The translations under genes were made by a program, and so were the position numbers. A model generated the notes under the pieces. It ran no database searches. It was given only the letters and a program-made list of their open reading frames with translations, and was not told the origin of the DNA. Positions 3,449 to 64,000 of a stretch of DNA of 64,000 nt are shown piece by piece. The first letter of the stretch is position 1. Every line of letters begins with the position of its first letter. This DNA is from Candidatus Methylomirabilota bacterium (GTDB lineage: Bacteria > Methylomirabilota > Methylomirabilia > Methylomirabilales > 2-02-FULL-66-22), in contig JACQVN010000014.1 in assembly GCA_016209735.1 (NCBI GenBank), forward strand, positions 4,633 through 68,632. Direction: 5' to 3'.

Positions 3449-3547
3449 GAATGACCAATGAGCATCCGGTTTCTCATTTGCTCATTGGTCATTGCGTCAT
3501 CGCTTCATTGCTTCATTGGTCATTGAGAGGTCATTGAGAATTGGTCC
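3449..3547. repeat. word-repeat hairpin (CAATGACC / GGTCATTG words)
   Basis: GAATGACCAATGAG-loop-CTCATTGGTCATT followed by tandem CATTG(C/G)T units. Abuts the stop codon of the DUF3106 gene. The same word occurs at 9801 and 36262. Confidence 0.85.
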
Positions 3548-17272: not shown

Positions 17273-17382
17273 CCTGGTTTTTGCGCTGAGCGCGCAAAAA
17301 CCAAAACTGAAAGGCATCGGAACCCCTATGGGATTGGTTCGGAGTAAACAACGACCAAGCCGAAAGGCGGCAACCCCGATGG
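17273..17382 (+). repeat. about 110-nt repeat family D, copy 1 (hairpin GGTTTTTGCGC/GCGCAAAAACC plus conserved tail)
   Basis: CCTGGTTTTTGCGCTGAGCGCGCAAAAACCAAAACTGAAAGG...GGGATTGGTTCGGAG...GACCAAGCCGAAAGG..AACCCCGATGG. Aligns along its full length with 25970-26081 and partly with 21704-21795. Confidence 0.8.
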
Positions 17383-21703: not shown

Positions 21704-21795
21704 CCTGGTTTTTGCGCCGCGTGCGCACGAACCAATTCCTTGCACCACCTGGTGGGATAGATCGAACGGCGGTGCACAATGCAGGCAATACCCGG
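21704..21795 (+). repeat. repeat family D, divergent copy 3
   Basis: CCTGGTTTTTGCGCCGCGTGCGCACGAACCAAT...GGTGGGAT..., starting 2 nt after the ACT gene stop. The hairpin is partly degraded. Confidence 0.55.
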
Positions 21796-25969: not shown

Positions 25970-26081
25970 CCTGGTTTTTGCGCTGAGCGCGCAAAAACCA
26001 ATAGTGAAAGACCTGGGGGAACCTCGGTGGGATTGGTCGGGAGCAAGCACCGGCCAACCCGGGAGCAGGTAACCCCGACGG
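25970..26081 (+). repeat. repeat family D, copy 2
   Basis: CCTGGTTTTTGCGCTGAGCGCGCAAAAACCAATAGTGAAAGACC...GGGATTGGTCGGGAG...CCGGCCAACCCGGGAGC..AACCCCGACGG. Confidence 0.8.
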
Positions 26082-56747: not shown

Positions 56748-59564
56748 TCAGTCGATGTCCACCTCCAGACGATCGGCCAGACCGAGGTCGCTCACGATCT
56801 GCTCGAGATCTTTCCGTAAAGGCTCGGCAGCAGTACCATCCACAGTCGAAGTCGCATTAAGATTGAGTCGAAGGTCTCCCCCGGACTTCAGCTTCGGAAT
56901 CAGTCGCGTGCCGAGACGATTCCATACCTCGGGAGGAATGCTCCCGCTGACCCGTACGGTCCGTTTGGCCGGAACGACAGGCGGGCGAACACCCTCGCCT
57001 CCTTTGGGGGCCGCTTCCGATTCGTCGGCTCCTGTCAGAATCGTCGTTTCGGGGGCCACAGGTCCTGCGGAGACACCCTCGGCTCCGAGAGGCGCCTTGA
57101 GGGCTCTCGCACGAACCTTGGTGAGGAGGAAAACGTCGCCCTCGAACGTAACCTCATCGTGGGGTACCAACTCACCCCACCACACGCGCGTAAAGCTGCC
57201 GTCCGGTAACTGCCCTGAGGCAAGACCCATCTCGCCCTTCATGACGAACTCCGGAATCTTCCCTCGCAGCACAAGATCTGGATCGACGAGTCGGGTAAGG
57301 GCGCCGTTGAGGAAGCTCTGGCGCAGCCCGGACAGAGGCCAGGCGCCAGCCTCCTTCAAGGCAGGCGGCCAGTTCCGCTCAATGTAGCCCGCACCGACCG
57401 ACTCATTCAGGAGGCCTTGAGACTTCAGTGCCGCGAGAATCCGGCCGGAGAGCGATTCCACCGCACTGGCGTGGCCCGCTCCGAGATCGATCATCTTGAG
57501 CCCACTGGCCGTCTTCTGCTCTGCCAGCACAACGAAGCGATAGGAGGCCCAGACCTCGTCCGTGACATTCTCATCGGCGTCGCGGACCTTGCCGGCCACC
57601 TCCGCCTTCTCGCCCTTCTCGAATTCGCCGCCCAGCACTCCCGTGGCGATCTCGCGCTCGTCCCGCCGCCAGGCCAGCCATGTTTCGACGGCCTCCTGGA
57701 GATCGCGATCGGGCTTCCGTATGAACCATACGAGGGCAGCAGGATACAGTCGTTTGGATTTCCCTCGCTGAACGGTCCAATCGGCAATCCATCCCCGGGC
57801 ACTTTCTGCTCCGCTCCAGGCCGCCTCTGGGTTTGCTACAACAATTGTCAGGCGGGGGGAATCGGCGATAGCCTCGGCATCCTCCGGGAAGAAGACGAGC
57901 GGCGTAGCGGCCTTGGTCTCAAACACTTTGCGGACCGCCGCTTGCGTGGTTTTCTTGATTTCGATTTCGTCCAGGGAAGCCCGGCGGTCGTTCACCACCT
58001 TGGCGAGCTTGGGGTGGAAGCCGAAACGGTAGCCGTCGGTGCCGGCCTTCCGGATATAGAAGCCGGCCTTCTCCAAGGCAATGGCCGCACTGTCAACCGA
58101 GGTGGTGTCTATCTCCGGCTCGCCCGGGGCGAAGCGGAGTTCGGGCAAGTGGGCATACTTGTCCACCATACCGCCGGAAGACTCAAAGAGGATCGTGGCC
58201 CCCACCCCACGATGAATCTCTTTCAACGCCCCCTTGGCGTCCGCATCCAGGGCTTTGGTGCGGGCCAAGTCGCCGGCAATGTCCGAGGTGATCGCCGACT
58301 CCAGCCGTGTTTCCCCGAGCTGTCCGAGGATGGTCGCCCGGAAATCGGCCGCCTCCAGGGGGGCCGACCCCAACGTGATCAGTGGCTCGCGCCGGGCGCG
58401 CTTGTAGCCGTCCCGGTACGCCCACGAGATCCATTGCGCTAGCATCGCCAGGGTGCCTCGAGTTTGCTGGTACTGTTGAAGCGATGTCCACTTCCGCTGA
58501 AAGACGGATACCGTGGAGGGGTGAAAGGGATAGCAGGCCTCGAAGCGGCCCTGGAGAAACTCACGCGCCGTGGTCCCTGCCTGCGCCGCGTTCCGCGACG
58601 CGGCAGGCAGGTCGGTGGCCGCGGAATCAACCGCTGTCCACTGCGGGGGGAGCTGTGCTCGTCGCCCGAAACACCAGTCCGCGTAAGCCTTGCCCACCGC
58701 CTTTCGGGCCTTCTCCGACCCAAGGCCCTCGAACAAGCGTCGCCGGATGACCTCGCTGATTTCAGCCTCGTCGGTGGCGATGAGGTCCTTCGCCACACGC
58801 TTGACGACCTTGGTGATCTTCTCCTGCCATTCCAGGTCATGAGATGACATCTCGACCTGGCTCCGGGGCAGGCTGATCATGGCCGCGCCGTGACTCGTCC
58901 CGGTCATGGCCACCGTCAGGTTCTGGGCAAAGGCATAGAAGCCATCCGCCAGGTCCCGATGCCGATTGATGAAGTTGAGCACCTCGTCGCAGAGGATCAG
59001 GACGCGGTCCCCCGCGGCCGTGAAGAGTCGGCACAGCGTCTCGGTCCCCGGGGCCGCCGTCTTGGCTTTCGGCCCCAGGATCGCCACGCCCGCATCGCCG
59101 GCAAGCTGACGGGCAACGTCAATCCAAGGGGTCTCTCGACCCTCTCGGGGATCCCAGGCATTCCCAACGAAAACCGCTACCCTGGCGGGCGGGATCTCGC
59201 TGAGGCCCGCGTTCTTGAGCATTCTGGCAACGCCCACTTCGTCAGCAACCTTCTTGCCGACGTTGACCAGATGGTAAAGGGCGGTCAGCGTGTGCGTCTT
59301 CCCGCCGCCGAACTGCGTGATCAGGGTGAGGACCGGCGCAGTCCGCTCGGTGAGGCCGGCTAGGCGCCGCAGGACCATTCCCGCATGCTCGCTGAGCGCT
59401 CGTGTGAAATACGTCCGGGAGAAGAACTTTACCGGATCGCTGTAATCCTCCGGCGCCGTCCCCCAGACCACCTGTTCCAGCGCGATGGCAAATTCATCCG
59501 GGTTAAACGATCGCCCTTCGCGAACCTCCGCCCGCGGTGTGGCGACCTTGTACCAAGGGTCCAT
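56748..59564 (-). CDS. DUF499-family P-loop ATPase (BrxC/PglY-like)
   Basis: N-terminus DPWYKVATPRAEVREGRSFNPDEFAIALEQVV...FFSRTYFT, Walker A ITQFGGGKTHT, Walker B VLILCDEVLNF, YPFHPSTVSVFQRKWTSLQQYQQTRGTLAMLA. 938 aa. GAGGAG Shine-Dalgarno. Confidence 0.85.
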   Translation of the reverse strand: MDPWYKVATPRAEVREGRSFNPDEFAIALEQVVWGTAPEDYSDPVKFFSRTYFTRALSEHAGMVLRRLAGLTERTAPVLTLITQFGGGKTHTLTALYHLVNVGKKVADEVGVARMLKNAGLSEIPPARVAVFVGNAWDPREGRETPWIDVARQLAGDAGVAILGPKAKTAAPGTETLCRLFTAAGDRVLILCDEVLNFINRHRDLADGFYAFAQNLTVAMTGTSHGAAMISLPRSQVEMSSHDLEWQEKITKVVKRVAKDLIATDEAEISEVIRRRLFEGLGSEKARKAVGKAYADWCFGRRAQLPPQWTAVDSAATDLPAASRNAAQAGTTAREFLQGRFEACYPFHPSTVSVFQRKWTSLQQYQQTRGTLAMLAQWISWAYRDGYKRARREPLITLGSAPLEAADFRATILGQLGETRLESAITSDIAGDLARTKALDADAKGALKEIHRGVGATILFESSGGMVDKYAHLPELRFAPGEPEIDTTSVDSAAIALEKAGFYIRKAGTDGYRFGFHPKLAKVVNDRRASLDEIEIKKTTQAAVRKVFETKAATPLVFFPEDAEAIADSPRLTIVVANPEAAWSGAESARGWIADWTVQRGKSKRLYPAALVWFIRKPDRDLQEAVETWLAWRRDEREIATGVLGGEFEKGEKAEVAGKVRDADENVTDEVWASYRFVVLAEQKTASGLKMIDLGAGHASAVESLSGRILAALKSQGLLNESVGAGYIERNWPPALKEAGAWPLSGLRQSFLNGALTRLVDPDLVLRGKIPEFVMKGEMGLASGQLPDGSFTRVWWGELVPHDEVTFEGDVFLLTKVRARALKAPLGAEGVSAGPVAPETTILTGADESEAAPKGGEGVRPPVVPAKRTVRVSGSIPPEVWNRLGTRLIPKLKSGGDLRLNLNATSTVDGTAAEPLRKDLEQIVSDLGLADRLEVDID

Positions 59565-59648
59565 TGCCAGCTCCTCAGGCGCGATGTTCGCTGACGATCG
59601 TCAGGCCAGGAAGGAAACGATATTCGTGTCGAGTAGAGCGCTCTCCAC

Positions 59649-60284
59649 TCAAACCCCCGCAGCGTTGGAAGACTCAGTTGCGACCAGGAATGCGCTAAAG
59701 TCGTCGGACTCCCATAGGTCAGCCCCCTTGCCGAATACGTCCTCCAACCGTCGGATGGGCTGAACCGCCTGCTCCCCCGCAAGCTCCTCAAGAGTCTTGT
59801 CCTGCCAGAACTTTTCCGCATCCATGATGTCGAAAGCCTCACCCTCCATGCGAGCCAGCTCGATGTCGCGTATGTTCACGCTAATCAGCCTTCCGGTCAA
59901 GGGATCCTCTTGCGCCTTTCCCGTGATCCGCACGTAGCTCCGCAGATACTCGTATACTCGCTCGGCCAGCGACTCGTCGAAGCGGCACGGGACGGGATCT
60001 CCCACCGGCGGGTGGAGGCGGCATCGCTCGCCAGCGCATCCGAAATCAGCCATGAGAAGGCGGCCCTCCAGCGTCCGCTGATTCGAAACCGGGCTTCGGA
60101 TCAGCCGCACAACCCGCTCACGGACCACCGGCGTCACCGCAGTCCTCCGGCTGAGCCTCTGTGTTCGCCATTCGATCTCAATTGCCCCGATCCCGTAATC
60201 GAGGATTCCCCCAATGTCCCGCAGACTGTGCAGGACACCGACATCGTAGCCCGCCGGCAATCCCTTCCCGTCGTGGGCAATCAC
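59649..60284 (-). CDS. hypothetical 211-aa protein of the island
   Basis: GTG start with AAGGGG upstream. I recognise no catalytic motif. The C-terminal tail TLEELAGEQAVQPIRRLEDVFGKGADLWESDDFSAFL resembles tails I associate with small antitoxin-like proteins. Same strand and short gaps to its neighbours. Confidence 0.55.
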   Translation of the reverse strand: MIAHDGKGLPAGYDVGVLHSLRDIGGILDYGIGAIEIEWRTQRLSRRTAVTPVVRERVVRLIRSPVSNQRTLEGRLLMADFGCAGERCRLHPPVGDPVPCRFDESLAERVYEYLRSYVRITGKAQEDPLTGRLISVNIRDIELARMEGEAFDIMDAEKFWQDKTLEELAGEQAVQPIRRLEDVFGKGADLWESDDFSAFLVATESSNAAGV

Positions 60285-60340
60285 TTCAACCCCTTGGAGG
60301 AAATGCTCTACCGCCTACGAAGGAGCCGTAGGTACACTCA

Positions 60341-60940
60341 CTAATGCGATTTCACTTGAACACTCAAGTCATCTATGAGGTGCTTGAGGCTCTTCTCGAC
60401 TTTTCCCGCTCGGTACAGGTCCATCGCTTCGACAAGCTCCCGCGCAAACTCAATTCCTCCCAGGGTGGAAGCATGGCCCGCACTCGCCACAGCCTTCGAT
60501 AGAATCCGCTTGTAGAGTTCTCTTCCGCACTTCCTTTTTCCCATCTTTGGTGCAATACCGACCACCTGAGTGAAGGATTCCGGATCAGCGAGGTACCACC
60601 GCTCTACATGGGGATCAGGACAGGCAACGACCGTCCGATCTCTGAAGGGAACCTCGATCTCTCCCTCAATCGCTTTCTTTGCCTCATTGAATCTCGTGCA
60701 ATTAGCATCAATCACAACCACAAGCAGGTCTGGAACCGACATGCCCCCGACACCGGTGAGGACCGCTTTCTGGTAGAGCGCAAGCTCTGAGATAGCGCGC
60801 CCGTGCCCCCCACGAGCAGAGCGGGCTCGAAGACTCACCGTCCTCTTCTCCATGCGCGCAAGGCGTTCAACCATTGCCGATAGGAATGCCTCGTGCGCAT
60901 AATCCTCAGCAAACAGGTCTACGGCAAGAGGCTTACTCAT
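60341..60940 (-). CDS. DUF4276-like (Toprim-like) protein, partner of the upstream ATPase
   Basis: AVDLFAEDYAHEAFL (acidic first strand), LLVVVIDANC (DxD-like position), ACPDPHVERWYLAD (E.W motif). 8-nt overlap with the ATPase gene. Confidence 0.55.
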   Translation of the reverse strand: MSKPLAVDLFAEDYAHEAFLSAMVERLARMEKRTVSLRARSARGGHGRAISELALYQKAVLTGVGGMSVPDLLVVVIDANCTRFNEAKKAIEGEIEVPFRDRTVVACPDPHVERWYLADPESFTQVVGIAPKMGKRKCGRELYKRILSKAVASAGHASTLGGIEFARELVEAMDLYRAGKVEKSLKHLIDDLSVQVKSH

Positions 60941-62171
60941 CGAGCATTCCCCGCAAAATCAGGCTTTCAAATAAACCATCCTCTGTGCCTGCTGTCAGCG
61001 CTCGAGCGATTTCCTCGTTCTTGAAAAGTGGTCCAGTCACCTGAAACGGCTTGACCTCGGTTCCATTCAAGCCACGCCGGACATTCAGTAGGGCAATCTC
61101 GCCCTCGCGCGACCGCGCCTGTCGCAAGACGGCATCACAGAAAAGCGGCGAATGTGTGGTGACAATGAGCTGCCTACCCTGCTCGGTGGAGAGAGACGTG
61201 AGGAGCTGAGCGATGAGCTCTAGCCGCCTCGGGTGAACCCCGTTCTCGGGCTCCTCGAAAGCTAAGAGTGCACCGGCCCAAGGGTTAACCGCAATGGCGC
61301 AAAGTGCAAGAACCCGAAGCGTTCCCTCCGACACAATTCTCGATGAGAAATCTATTCCATCCTGGCGAATCTGAATGTCCAGCGTCCCGCGACGCTTGTC
61401 GAGATCTACGGTCAAGTCCTCTACGCTTGGAATGAGCGACCGCAACGTACGCCGGACAGCATCGAACCGTTTGGACCCTTCCCCCGACCGCATTCGGTAC
61501 AGGAATGGAGCGATATCTTCCCCAAGTACACCGATATCTCGTACGTCGGCAGGTGGCCTGGCCGATCGCATCGCAACTCGCGGATCAAGGTAGTAAGTGC
61601 GCCAGCCGGATAGCTCGCCGCGACACCGATCGATCGCTCGATATTCGACGCCGCCAAGTCTCGGGTCCGACAGGGCAGAGTAATTTTGTCCAAGTAATTC
61701 GTACCGCGGCTTCCCGGGATGACTCTTCCGACGAATTCGGAGTTTCTCGTTGACGACCTCGATGGCCGGTGAACCTTTGGGATCACCTTTTTGGCTGAGG
61801 GTTGACAAGTACTCATCACGTACCGATAGACTGCCGGACTGAGGCTGGATCTCGACTGCTATTCGGTAACGCCCAATCTCCCTCGCTATCTGCAGATCCG
61901 CCTCAAGCGAAAAGCGGGCAGAACGTTCTCCAAGAAGGGCCGCAAGCCCACCGGCCGGGAAGGCAAATGCCTCAGCTGGATACCCACGGATTGGCTCGGA
62001 AAGCGCATCCGACAGAGTTCGACTTGTCCCGATTCGCGATAGAGCCTGGACAGCGTCTAGGAGGTTGCTCTTCCCGGCCGCGTTGGGACCAAAGAGGACT
62101 GTCATGCGGGGGAAGGCAACCTCGACGTTGCCGAGGGATTTGAAACCTTCAACCTTCAACCTTCTGAGCAC
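60933..62171 (-). CDS. ABC/SMC-type AAA ATPase (AAA_21/AAA_15-like, OLD/PARIS/AbiL-class)
   Basis: GTG start with GGGGGAGGAGG upstream. LKVEGFKSL..V....R.TVLFGPNAAGKSNLLDA (Walker A), LLAFEEPENGVHP (Walker B/D-loop), LIVTTHSPLF (H-loop). Confidence 0.88.
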   Translation of the reverse strand: MLRRLKVEGFKSLGNVEVAFPRMTVLFGPNAAGKSNLLDAVQALSRIGTSRTLSDALSEPIRGYPAEAFAFPAGGLAALLGERSARFSLEADLQIAREIGRYRIAVEIQPQSGSLSVRDEYLSTLSQKGDPKGSPAIEVVNEKLRIRRKSHPGKPRYELLGQNYSALSDPRLGGVEYRAIDRCRGELSGWRTYYLDPRVAMRSARPPADVRDIGVLGEDIAPFLYRMRSGEGSKRFDAVRRTLRSLIPSVEDLTVDLDKRRGTLDIQIRQDGIDFSSRIVSEGTLRVLALCAIAVNPWAGALLAFEEPENGVHPRRLELIAQLLTSLSTEQGRQLIVTTHSPLFCDAVLRQARSREGEIALLNVRRGLNGTEVKPFQVTGPLFKNEEIARALTAGTEDGLFESLILRGMLDE

Positions 62172-62793
62172 CGGAACCTCCTCCCCCTATTTTCGTGGTA
62201 CTGCCAAGAGCATGGCGTCGAGCAGGCGCTTTTCTTCGCTCTCTTTAGGGTACAACGCGGATAGGGCATTGGCCAAGCGGAGAAAGTCGGCGCTGCGCTG
62301 GATCTCGGCCTCCAGGAGCGCCCGGAGGGCGTTGGTCCGGCCGCCGGCTTGGAGGAGCATGGCGGCGTGGACGTGATCCAGCGTCGTCGCCCCTGCCTGC
62401 GCCGCGTGTCGCGCCGCGGCAGGCAGGTCCCGCCGAGTCCTCAAGGCCTTGTCCGAGATCGCAGCCCCCCTTCGGGCACGGCCGCGAACCCGGACCGGCT
62501 GCGGTTCCGTTTCCATCCTCGGAAATAGTGTCAACTGCGCCGCACTCTTGGGACTCTGTTCCAATTGGTCCGCGACGACCTCCGCCCCATCCTCGCCGAA
62601 GAGCTGCTTGGCTCGCTGCGAAACCGGCAGCAGGCGCACGATGCCCTTTTCGGTCTCGATGATCCGGCTTTCCCAATCCGGCAGATGGATGCCGAGCGGC
62701 TGGGCGAATCGACGCGCGACATCAAAGGCGAGACTGAAACCCTTGGCCCTCTTTCGCGACGTAGCCTCCTCACTGTCGTCGCCCATCTCGTCC

Positions 62794-62838
62794 CCCTCAC
62801 CCTCCCCCTCTCCCAGTGGGAGAGGGCCGGGGTGAGGG
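62794..62838. repeat. 45-nt palindromic element inserted in frame in the methylase gene
   Basis: CCCTCACCCTCCCCCTCTCCCA-G-TGGGAGAGGGCCGGGGTGAGGG, 22-nt arms with a 4-nt internal mismatch. Translated as PHPGPLPLGEGEGEG. Confidence 0.85.
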
Positions 62839-63227
62839 TCGCCGTTGTCGCCATTCGTGCTCTCGAGTGTCCAAAGGAACAAGGCGGTCAACCGCGCGTC
62901 TTCTTCCAGTGCCCCAGCAGCGCCATTGCGTGCCTTGGCCTCGGCCGTGCCCAGGACCTGCTCTAGCGCCATACGACCGACGACTTCCCAGACATAGGCC
63001 AGATACCCTCGCTTATGGGGCTCCTTCGCTTCGGGATCGCCGCCCAGCGGAATTCCCGCTCCTCGGCGTCCACAACCTTGGCGTACCGGCTGTAAATCTC
63101 CAGCGCCGGACGGATGCAGGCAAACACCAGGTCCGCCCCTCGGACGCCTTCAGATTGGAGCCGCTCCATCCAGTCGCCGACACGGATGGGCAGCTCCCGA
63201 AAGACTTCCACCCAGTCACCCACTCCT

Positions 63228-63276
63228 CCCTCACCCTCGGTCCCTCTCCCACTGGGAGAGGGACCGAGGGTGAGGG
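63228..63276. repeat. 49-nt perfect palindromic element at the first frame break of the methylase gene
   Basis: CCCTCACCCTCGGTCCCTCTCCCA-C-TGGGAGAGGGACCGAGGGTGAGGG, perfect 24-nt arms. Same family as 62794-62838. Confidence 0.9.
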
Positions 63277-64000
63277 GCGGGGGCGGCAGACCAGATGGAT
63301 ACTCGTCGCGAGCGCGGCTGAATCGCGAGCCCGTAGCCGGGTCCCGCTCTCGGTGGCAATCGGCCACGAACCGGTGATTATCCAGCCTCCTCGGATCATC
63401 CCCGAGAGCAGCGCTTCCCATCCCTCCGTTGTCGTGTGGGCAAAGACGACGGAGCCTATTCCTTCATCGCGCAGGACCCGTCGGCCCTCCGCAAATGCCG
63501 CGGCCATTGTTTCTTCAAAGAAACGGCGGTCCTTTGGAGATCCATTGAAATTCTTGGTTTCATCCTGAACGGCTTCGCGCGCCTTCGGAGTCAGATCGTT
63601 TTGTGCGTCGTATGGATCCCTGAGAAGAGGATGGCCTGGCAACACGCGCTTCAACCAGACGAAGAAAAAGTCCGAGAGGTCGGAATACGGGATCGCATCG
63701 TAGTAGGGAGGATCTGTGAACCAGATTCCTGCCGCCTCGTCAGGCAAGGGAGACTCACGGGCATCAGCCAATTGCAGTTGGCCAGACCTACCCTTCGGCA
63801 GCACATCGATCACCCTTGCCATCGTGCCGAGGGTAACAGAATAGTCTCCTGCCTGGTCGCCGAAGCGCGAGGGTTCGGCAAAATCCCACAGGATCGGAAG
63901 TGCTTGACGAGTAAAGAGGTGCCGAACCTGGGTCTTGGTGTTCTCCCACTGGCAAAGGGCATTGCCAATGTCCGCGAACCGGCTCAAGGCCAGGCCTGCG

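Follow-up and report, generated by a model that had tools for sequence, protein, structure and literature searches.

What has become of the DNA methylase gene in the phage-defence island at the end of this stretch of a metagenome-assembled Candidatus Methylomirabilota (NC10) genome? The window, that is, the whole 64,000-nt stretch analysed (contig JACQVN010000014.1, positions 4,633 to 68,632), ends within a minus-strand gene for a DUF1156/HmaB N6-adenine methylase, which runs off at position 64000. Six-frame translation spreads its C-terminal ~600 codons over three reading frames, and ~390 N-terminal codons lie beyond the window end. We think it probable that the methylase underwent a recent, real inactivation, by insertion of a palindromic repeat of the triplex-motif (TM) type and deletion of a single nucleotide, and that this was tolerated as targeting was lost too. 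Most likely, this is an ordinary pseudogene, and the system it belongs to is of a known kind, namely one related to bacteriophage exclusion (BREX).

Segment 1 (63277..64000, minus strand) holds the catalytic core, including the motif IV DPPY at 63703-63714, and ends in ...SIHLVCRPR. It shares 72-86% identity with orthologues P0001-P0008 (tblastn) and matches NCBIfam NF042963 (DUF1156_antiphage; E=2.8e-21) over profile positions 495-704. As assembled, its frame continues for 86 out-of-frame codons to a stop at 63013-63015. Segment 2 (63053..63226, minus strand) lies in a second frame, reads GVGDW...YAKVVDAEERE and forms the start of the C-terminal helical domain, while segment 3 (62187..63052, minus strand) provides the remainder of the C-terminal region in the third frame, from IPLGGDPEAK to LLAVPRK and the stop codon. 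Most of segment 3 is covered by a sub-open reading frame (sub-ORF) of 261 codons (62187-62972) that starts with ATG and that GenBank labels hypothetical protein HY712_02345 (MBI4536779.1). As the GenBank proteins match the frameshifted reading, the frameshifted sequence is the one that was deposited.

That these segments belong to one protein is evident from comparison with intact relatives. Eight intact orthologues each gave three colinear tblastn matches, in frames -2, -1 and -3 (E 1e-148 to 1e-29). The segments contain no internal stops and share ~76-86% identity with their closest orthologues; their repaired concatenation finds P0001 as best match (E=0, 79% identity, 100% query coverage) and has 7591 homologues at E<=1e-10, most of them ~1005 residues long and with Pfam DUF1156. 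Full-length orthologues carry PF06634; of the present gene, DPPY and core are seen in the window, the N-terminus lies outside it and the C-terminal region occupies two further frames. On sequence grounds, the three-segment coding signal is far above chance. A first-pass annotation, made from the letters alone, had described a methylase in three frames whose segments are colinear parts of one protein, with the DPPY-containing part separated from the C-terminal segments. Translation from 64000 to 62187 in three frames recovered all peptides it had quoted, the orthologue alignment it had named beforehand as a possible refutation displays the colinearity, and DPPY lies in segment 1.

The same annotation had proposed to place the indels with the help of DUF1156 orthologues, which yields a 41-nt insertion at the site 63228-63276 and a 1-nt deletion at ~63050-63058. 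In the intact form, as aligned from 52 orthologues, the core end ...HL(V/I)CRPR is followed by a linker of 4-5 residues (TEDK, PEDAP etc.) and then by (V/I)GDW. In the window, 53 nt separate the last R codon from the V codon, and DNA alignment leaves a gap of 41 nt in the closest orthologue (L122), so that break 1 amounts to a net insertion of this length. Break 2 (63050..63058, minus strand) lies 175 nt downstream and is a 1-nt gap in the window relative to L122, with GAGCG-GGAATTCCG set against GAGCGCGAGATTCCG (EEREIPLGG): one base is lost in CGN-GAR-ATT, turning the orthologous GAGCGCGAGATTCCG into GAGCGGGAATTCCG and creating a GAATTC site. Since 41 is 3n+2, both lesions shift the frame the same way and there is no compensation. 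Neither is present in any of the 52 aligned orthologues.

What was inserted at break 1? Between the first two frames, where the first-pass annotation had noticed a 49-nt palindrome, lies TM1 (63228..63276), perfect over its 49 nt, with arms of 24 nt around one central base (24+1+24) that are 100% complementary. It causes the first frameshift, is laid out as CCCTCACCC-TCGGT-CCCTCTCCC-A(C/G)T-GGGAGAGGG-ACCGA-GGGTGAGGG, and when folded as RNA reaches -59.5 kcal/mol (z = -7). An imperfect copy, TM2 (62794..62838; arms 22+22, 86% complementary), sits in frame in the same gene (DPHPGPLPLGEGEGEG), in an acidic, probably disordered linker. Judged by sequence pattern, both are BoxC/PIT/TM_ECO intrastrand triplex motif repeats: TM2 fits CCCTCNCCC-N3-6-GGGNGAGGG-N3-GGGNGAGGG on both strands, and TM1 fits the TM_ECO pattern only if the second loop is allowed to span 1-6 nt, its own second loop being 5 nt long as opposed to the published 3 nt. 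The 64-kb window contains exactly two TM_ECO copies, both inside the methylase gene. As candidates for Rfam families, the hairpins returned only sub-threshold matches to eukaryotic miRNA models, which we discarded as spurious. The repeat, earlier called BoxC or PIT, was described as TM_ECO by Holder et al. 2015, who counted 3610 copies in 262 proteobacterial genomes, found all 23 copies of E. coli K-12 to be intergenic and associated TM motifs with local instability and with deletions and rearrangements between strains of E. coli, without finding a function or a mobilising gene (PMC4666352). Whereas TM_ECO as reported is intergenic in E. coli and confined to proteobacteria, the two copies in the window lie inside the coding sequence of an NC10 bacterium; the intergenic location, which neither of them shares, is a reported habit in E. 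coli and not a structural requirement of the family.

TM1 is not the only small insertion in this island. A 36-nt palindrome of a different family is inserted in frame in the methylase (62392..62427; CCTGCCTGC...GCAGGCAGG, encoding DLPAAARHAAQAG), and a second member of this CCTGCCTGC...GCAGGCAGG family lies in frame in the neighbouring DUF499 gene (58576-58611); the family peptide is DLPAA(A/S)R(H/N)AAQAG. The compared orthologues are without the 36-nt insertions, except that P0007 has a shorter related insert at the methylase site. Three of the island's four small palindromic insertions are thus in frame and one, TM1, is not, where one in three would be expected in frame if insertion were random; this is the pattern that random insertion filtered by selection would give. 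We take the sister insertions as an argument that TM1 is a genuine insertion. Four orthologous methylases (P0039, P0092, P0040 and P0104, all metagenomic sequences) likewise carry in-frame TM-derived peptides in TM2's linker, P0104 with a second copy near its C-terminus, and the DNA of TM-bearing orthologues confirms CCCTCACCC..CCCTCTCCC..GGGAGAGGG. Short palindromes inside ORFs, tolerated in frame in surface or linker regions, are familiar from Rickettsia palindromic elements (RPEs) and other repeats resembling miniature inverted-repeat transposable elements (MITEs). RPEs differ from the palindromes of the window in sequence, size (100-150 bp) and taxon, and to our knowledge they, too, are without a known mobilising enzyme. 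A further palindrome of the window, CCTGGTTTTTGCGC...GCGCAAAAACCA, recurs at 17273-17320, 21704-21751 and 25970-26017, with a spacing of ~4.3-4.4 kb and two copies identical over 29 nt; these copies may represent binding sites of a regulator or a family of terminators.

Together, this suggests a sequence of events wherein, first, a copy of the GC-rich BoxC/TM_ECO palindrome would have landed in the short linker between methylase core and C-terminal domain, adding a net 41 nt and destroying the frame, and second, one base would have been lost further downstream, in what appears to be the first helical domain of the C-terminal region. From the assembled gene, the cell could obtain no more than the core, extended by 86 nonsense residues, and a C-terminal fragment of 261 residues, and the first C-terminal domain could not be made intact. 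For coarse domain boundaries, and for these only, we used an AlphaFold model of orthologue P0002 (40 close orthologues; mean pLDDT 60, pTM 0.42); a search of PDB sequences with P0002 gave no match. In the model, a helical domain spans ~residues 681-801 (pLDDT 57-83) and break 2 appears to fall inside this folded domain, in a loop at ~732-748, while break 1, TM2 and the 36-mer probably lie in disordered linkers, modelled as low-confidence stretches. The lack of internal stops and the ~76-86% identity imply that decay is recent. We infer, then, that the lesions are both real, as opposed to errors of assembly, and recent, that the protein does not function and that results obtained for MANTIS and HmaA, discussed below, are transferable.

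Several points weigh against this account. The lesions were seen in assembled sequence, and assemblers are known to have difficulty with perfect palindromes. Both shifts are "one base short": adding a G at the right edge of TM1 and an A in GAAATT would put the reading back in frame, and in long-read data this is how homopolymer errors look. An independent k=31 assembly, the Logan assembly of run SRR12113390 (contig L001), is identical at 3535/3535 positions over 59301-62835, yet ends inside TM2, as expected of a repeat, and reaches neither break. The methylase N-terminus and, presumably, the helicase-nuclease lie beyond the window, the structural model is poor (mean pLDDT 60), and the function would be read from relatives by analogy, with MANTIS being a type 2 system and HmaA having been tested in E. 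coli.

Could the real gene be intact, with indels left by an assembler at a hairpin or repeat, or by a miscounted short homopolymer? We regard this as unlikely, if worth taking seriously. In its favour, each break needs only +1 nt, TM1 belongs to a repeat family and forms a perfect hairpin of 49 nt, the independent assembly stops at its sister copy TM2, and other DUF1156 fragments in the database contain scattered frameshifts, some of them clearly error-like (P0265 has multiple shifts). The body of break 1, however, is an unambiguous 41-nt insertion of a recognisable repeat, hence not an error of the homopolymer type, and only its exact length could be wrong. Moreover, the adjacent 3.5 kb are identical in two assemblies, and the three other palindromic insertions of the island are in frame. 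Metagenome-assembled genomes with the HY7xx locus-tag prefix presumably derive from groundwater sequenced on Illumina machines, which rarely yields consensus indels, and we counted this against an artefact as well. In a partial census, based on the domain completeness of ~20 ORFs and orthologue alignment of three neighbours, we found two lesions in 1.8 kb of methylase versus none in the ~19 kb of other genes checked: Der matches its full-length model, and ~seven multi-domain housekeeping genes have complete domain sets. (A window-wide frameshift census by a self-trained periodic Markov coding model was discarded, as it confused strands at 67% GC.) Searching the protein collection with the out-of-frame tails returned no identical fragments, and an exact-pattern scan of Joint Genome Institute (JGI) metagenomes, with either allele allowed at break 2, gave 0 matches. 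Elsewhere in the database, six DUF1156 proteins from ENA assemblies (P0249, P0250, P0265, P0316, P0325 and P0294) are fragments with frameshifts of their own: their tails translate the conserved C-terminal region out of frame, and their break positions differ; to go by their sequences, broken copies of the DUF1156 methylase, or assembly errors in them, seem common.

Would a cell survive with a dead methylase and live effectors? The first-pass annotation had reasoned that such a restriction-modification (R-M)-like combination should be toxic, presuming live effectors, although the nuclease-helicase is not among the genes of the window. BREX-related (BR) type 1 systems consist of ATPase, methylase and helicase-nuclease, to which type 2 adds DUF3780 (PMC12839542). 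In MANTIS (Gao_RL, BR type 2), knockout of mtsC was non-toxic and abolished restriction, and only catalytically dead, DNA-binding MtsC gave nuclease-dependent autoimmunity, from which its authors conclude that the methylase supplies the nuclease's target recognition (preprint 10.64898/2026.09.23.753747). As the methylase of MANTIS is also the targeting subunit, its loss is not toxic there. In type 1 systems, HmaA alone was non-toxic in E. coli, and ~15% of hmaA loci are without hmaB (PMC11232893). MANTIS resembles our locus in its DUF499 ATPase, in its group-alpha adenine methylase, which serves MANTIS as self-marker and targeting subunit, and in its helicase-nuclease, expected for our locus beyond the window; unlike our locus, it includes a small standalone protein, named DUF3780 in PMC12839542 and DUF3870 in the preprint, along with a PLD nuclease. 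Carried over to the Hma-type locus of the window by this analogy, a null allele of the methylase would disarm restriction and not unleash the nuclease, and the embedded ATPase pair would be a separate, methylation-independent module. The expected toxicity is therefore not borne out by the relatives. Among the four outcomes that the first-pass annotation had envisaged, a decaying system fits best, and independence of the effectors from methylation holds in part, for the AAA_21/DUF4276 pair, an independent embedded candidate (PADLOC HEC-01).

Alternatively, the break might be a functional truncation or split, in which the core (DUF1156, methyltransferase (MTase) and target recognition domain) still methylates, with or without the C-terminal fragment, and the system is active. 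We consider this improbable. Break 1 does fall between domains, in a linker that follows the last strand of the core (HLVCRPR); the C-terminal domain (CTD) of MANTIS MtsC is flexible and invisible in the DNA complex; and the 261-aa ORF (ORF-C) starts with ATG and bears a gene annotation. Yet break 2 cuts the most conserved C-terminal motif (GDWMERLQ.EGVRGADLVFACIGPALEIYSRY, in segment 2) from the rest of its domain, segment 2 is severed from segments 1 and 3 alike, orthologue alignment does not reveal the ATG of ORF-C as a conserved start, and 0 of ~50 full-length orthologues are split here. In MANTIS, motif VIII is located at the MTase/CTD junction, and BR methylases of type 1 and type 2 all keep a C-terminal helix-turn-helix-like triad (PMC12839542).

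A reversible switch, by which the unstable triplex-motif palindrome would render the methylase phase-variable in the population, is very improbable. The local instability, with deletions and rearrangements, associated with TM motifs when E. coli strains are compared (PMC4666352) and the frequent phase variation of defence genes speak for it; against it, no flanking direct repeat for precise excision is evident, the A2/A3 run that holds the second lesion is not long enough for switching by slippage, and both independent lesions would have to revert. Finally, programmed ribosomal frameshifting or bypassing that restores a full-length methylase, for which the very stable hairpin at break 1 and the frames open across the junctions might be invoked and which the first-pass annotation had listed alongside split subunits, is scarcely credible: there is no slippery heptamer at either junction, the hairpin lies upstream, not downstream, of the place where the ribosome would have to shift, the mechanism would have to operate twice, every orthologue is encoded in a single frame and none shares the shift or the breaks, and the frameshifted DUF1156 fragments of other assemblies break elsewhere.

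In what kind of locus does the interrupted methylase reside? By its gene content, it is a DUF499-centred BR type 1 system, alias Hma, with an embedded AAA_21/DUF4276 pair. The closest orthologue of the methylase matches PADLOC HmaB (E=6.8e-94). The DUF499 AAA+ ATPase (HmaC, a BrxC-like scaffold; 938 aa, 56748..59564, minus strand, MBI4536775) matches PADLOC HmaC (E=5.1e-83), Pfam DUF499 (E=6.9e-12) and NCBIfam NF042962 (E=2.2e-22). Directly next to the methylase lies an AAA_21/ABC-type ATPase (412 aa, 60933..62171, minus strand, MBI4536778), a MAD3-like protein that matches PADLOC HEC-01A (E=7.3e-56), followed by its partner gene (60341..60940, minus strand, MBI4536777), whose match to DUF4276 is weak (E=1.5e-4) and below the Pfam cut-off. 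The first-pass annotation had held the ATPase genes to be intact, and so they are: relative to L123, the AAA_21 gene (1-412 of 414), the DUF4276 gene (3-189 of 198) and the DUF499 gene (6-928 of 930) each align over their full length as a single match in one frame. An AAA_21-type ATPase with a small partner inside an Hma locus is what defines HEC-01 (Hma-embedded candidate), and L123 has the same pair at the same position; in Halomonas, hmaB and hmaC are reported to be separated by a two-gene AAA_21 insertion (PMC11232893).

The gene order in L123 (SNF2/NOV_C helicase, DUF1156, AAA_21, DUF4276, DUF499) is the same here for the genes within the window, and L122 and L124 also have a helicase upstream of the methylase. 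No match to the Swi2/Snf2 helicase-nuclease (HmaA, NOV_C/PD-(D/E)XK) was found within the window, which, to judge from this order, holds the downstream two-thirds of an Hma system whose helicase-nuclease should lie just beyond 64000. Hma systems and the window have in common the DUF1156-type N6-adenine methylase and the DUF499 AAA+ ATPase; the window differs in its twice-interrupted methylase, in the helicase-nuclease not being visible and in an extra ORF before DUF499. This ORF (211 aa, 59649..60284, minus strand; hypothetical protein HY712_02330, MBI4536776) has no PADLOC match and no Pfam match even at E<=1, L123 is without a gene at its position, and it may be a further embedded defence-related gene. 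A standalone DUF3780, the mark of BR type 2, was not found in the locus, where this unassigned ORF is the only small one without a Pfam match; hence the assignment to type 1. The G+C content is 0.66-0.72 in the flanking housekeeping genes, such as that for Der (MBI4536774), and drops to 0.56-0.65 (up to 0.66) in the island, consistent with horizontal acquisition. Within the island, the AAA_21/DUF4276 pair (window positions 60000-62200) has 0.56-0.58 as compared to 0.60-0.66 for the rest, which suggests that the pair was acquired separately and more recently.

How far does the palindrome reach beyond this methylase? We scanned one genome per GTDB species with the pattern CCCTCTCCCA-S-TGGGAGAGGG-N2-6-GGGTGAGGG and obtained at least 120 stretches (L002-L121). 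The phyla and groups among the matches listed include Planctomycetota, Verrucomicrobiota, Chloroflexota, Nitrospirota, Acidobacteriota, Myxococcota, many Proteobacteria, Bifidobacteriaceae, a bacterium of the candidate phyla radiation and others, and the distribution is thus far wider than the reported proteobacterial range. Among these matches, palindromes are depleted from long open frames (40% versus 72% for random positions). Still among the matches listed, nine of the ten longest ORFs with an in-frame palindrome are R-M genes (five HsdR, two HsdM, one HsdS and one N6_N4 methylase), five of which also hold an in-frame DUF559/MTES_1575 endonuclease domain, and type I R-M genes or DUF559 occur in 23 of the 120 listed loci. 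In an HsdR alignment, the same insertion sites are occupied, invariably in frame, by a solo TM in some sequences and by DUF559 between two TM halves in others. For 12/13 DUF559 domains, TM 9-mers lie within ~100 nt on both sides, arranged as inverted terminal repeats: [CCCTCACCC-CCCTCTCCC-GGGAGAGGG]-DUF559-[CCCTCTCCC-GGGAGAGGG-GGGTGAGGG]. Solo palindromic TMs are also found in non-defence ORFs (MalT-like regulators, FAD oxidase, glycosyltransferase); the link of TM to defence genes is one of enrichment and no strict rule.

The association also holds in the reverse direction. In 80 DUF559 loci from JGI metagenomes (L126-L205), picked by protein pattern alone and blind to the palindrome, strict TM hairpins occur within 200 nt of DUF559 upstream in 27/74, downstream in 35/76 and on both sides in 19/70 loci. 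Their density is 2.05 per kb in these 200-nt flanks and 0.18 per kb farther off, an 11-fold difference, and their offsets from DUF559 are stereotyped; 36/80 loci lie in or adjoin type I R-M genes. In E. coli K-12 (L125, 1349500-1352500), TM_ECO no. 9 lies 168 nt downstream of the DUF559 gene ycjD, whose 3' end is itself TM-like; the ycjD locus is present at >=80% coverage in 3378/5426 complete E. coli genomes, and many others match only the TM part of the query. None of the 120 listed palindrome loci contains a DUF1156 gene, and the DUF559 motif is absent from the 361 DUF1156 homologues retrieved; no full DUF559 module is therefore documented in the DUF1156 methylase family. We found no paper on a link between DUF559 and TM in the searchable literature, which does not prove that there is none.

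Our tentative proposal, plausible rather than probable, is that TM palindromes are the terminal hairpins of a small module built around DUF559, a Vsr-like endonuclease, that solo copies are its footprints or MITE-like derivatives, that the module colonises R-M-type defence genes in frame in several phyla, and that the methylase of the window suffered an out-of-frame solo insertion which knocked out a BREX-related system. Solo copies could arise by recombination between the two directly repeated hairpin cores, which would delete DUF559 and leave the palindromic form seen in TM1 and TM2. A possible parallel is offered by repetitive extragenic palindromic (REP) elements and the REP-associated tyrosine transposase (RAYT), in that a hairpin repeat is present in many solo copies, and the same hairpins flank a single-gene nuclease. 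DUF559, however, is a Vsr-like PD-(D/E)XK nuclease and not a Y1 transposase; the likeness suggests a REP/RAYT-like relationship of TM and DUF559, as a possible analogy.

What does this mean for the biology of such islands? In itself, one more decaying defence gene carries little weight, and the seeming paradox of live effectors beside a dead methylase disappears if the system is seen as BREX-related, since in this group the methylase of the closest studied relative also provides target recognition. For the annotation of defence islands, the locus calls for caution, given that a C-terminal methylase fragment is listed in GenBank as a "hypothetical protein". More interesting is the cause of the break: a triplex-motif palindrome, hitherto described as intergenic and proteobacterial, inside a coding sequence of an NC10 bacterium. 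Orthologous methylases and, in several phyla, type I R-M genes contain this palindrome in frame as well, and it is physically coupled to DUF559 modules. If this coupling reflects mobilisation, it would explain a repeat family that has been an orphan without known origin since the 1990s. If true, this would also identify a mutational force acting on R-M-type defence genes in particular.

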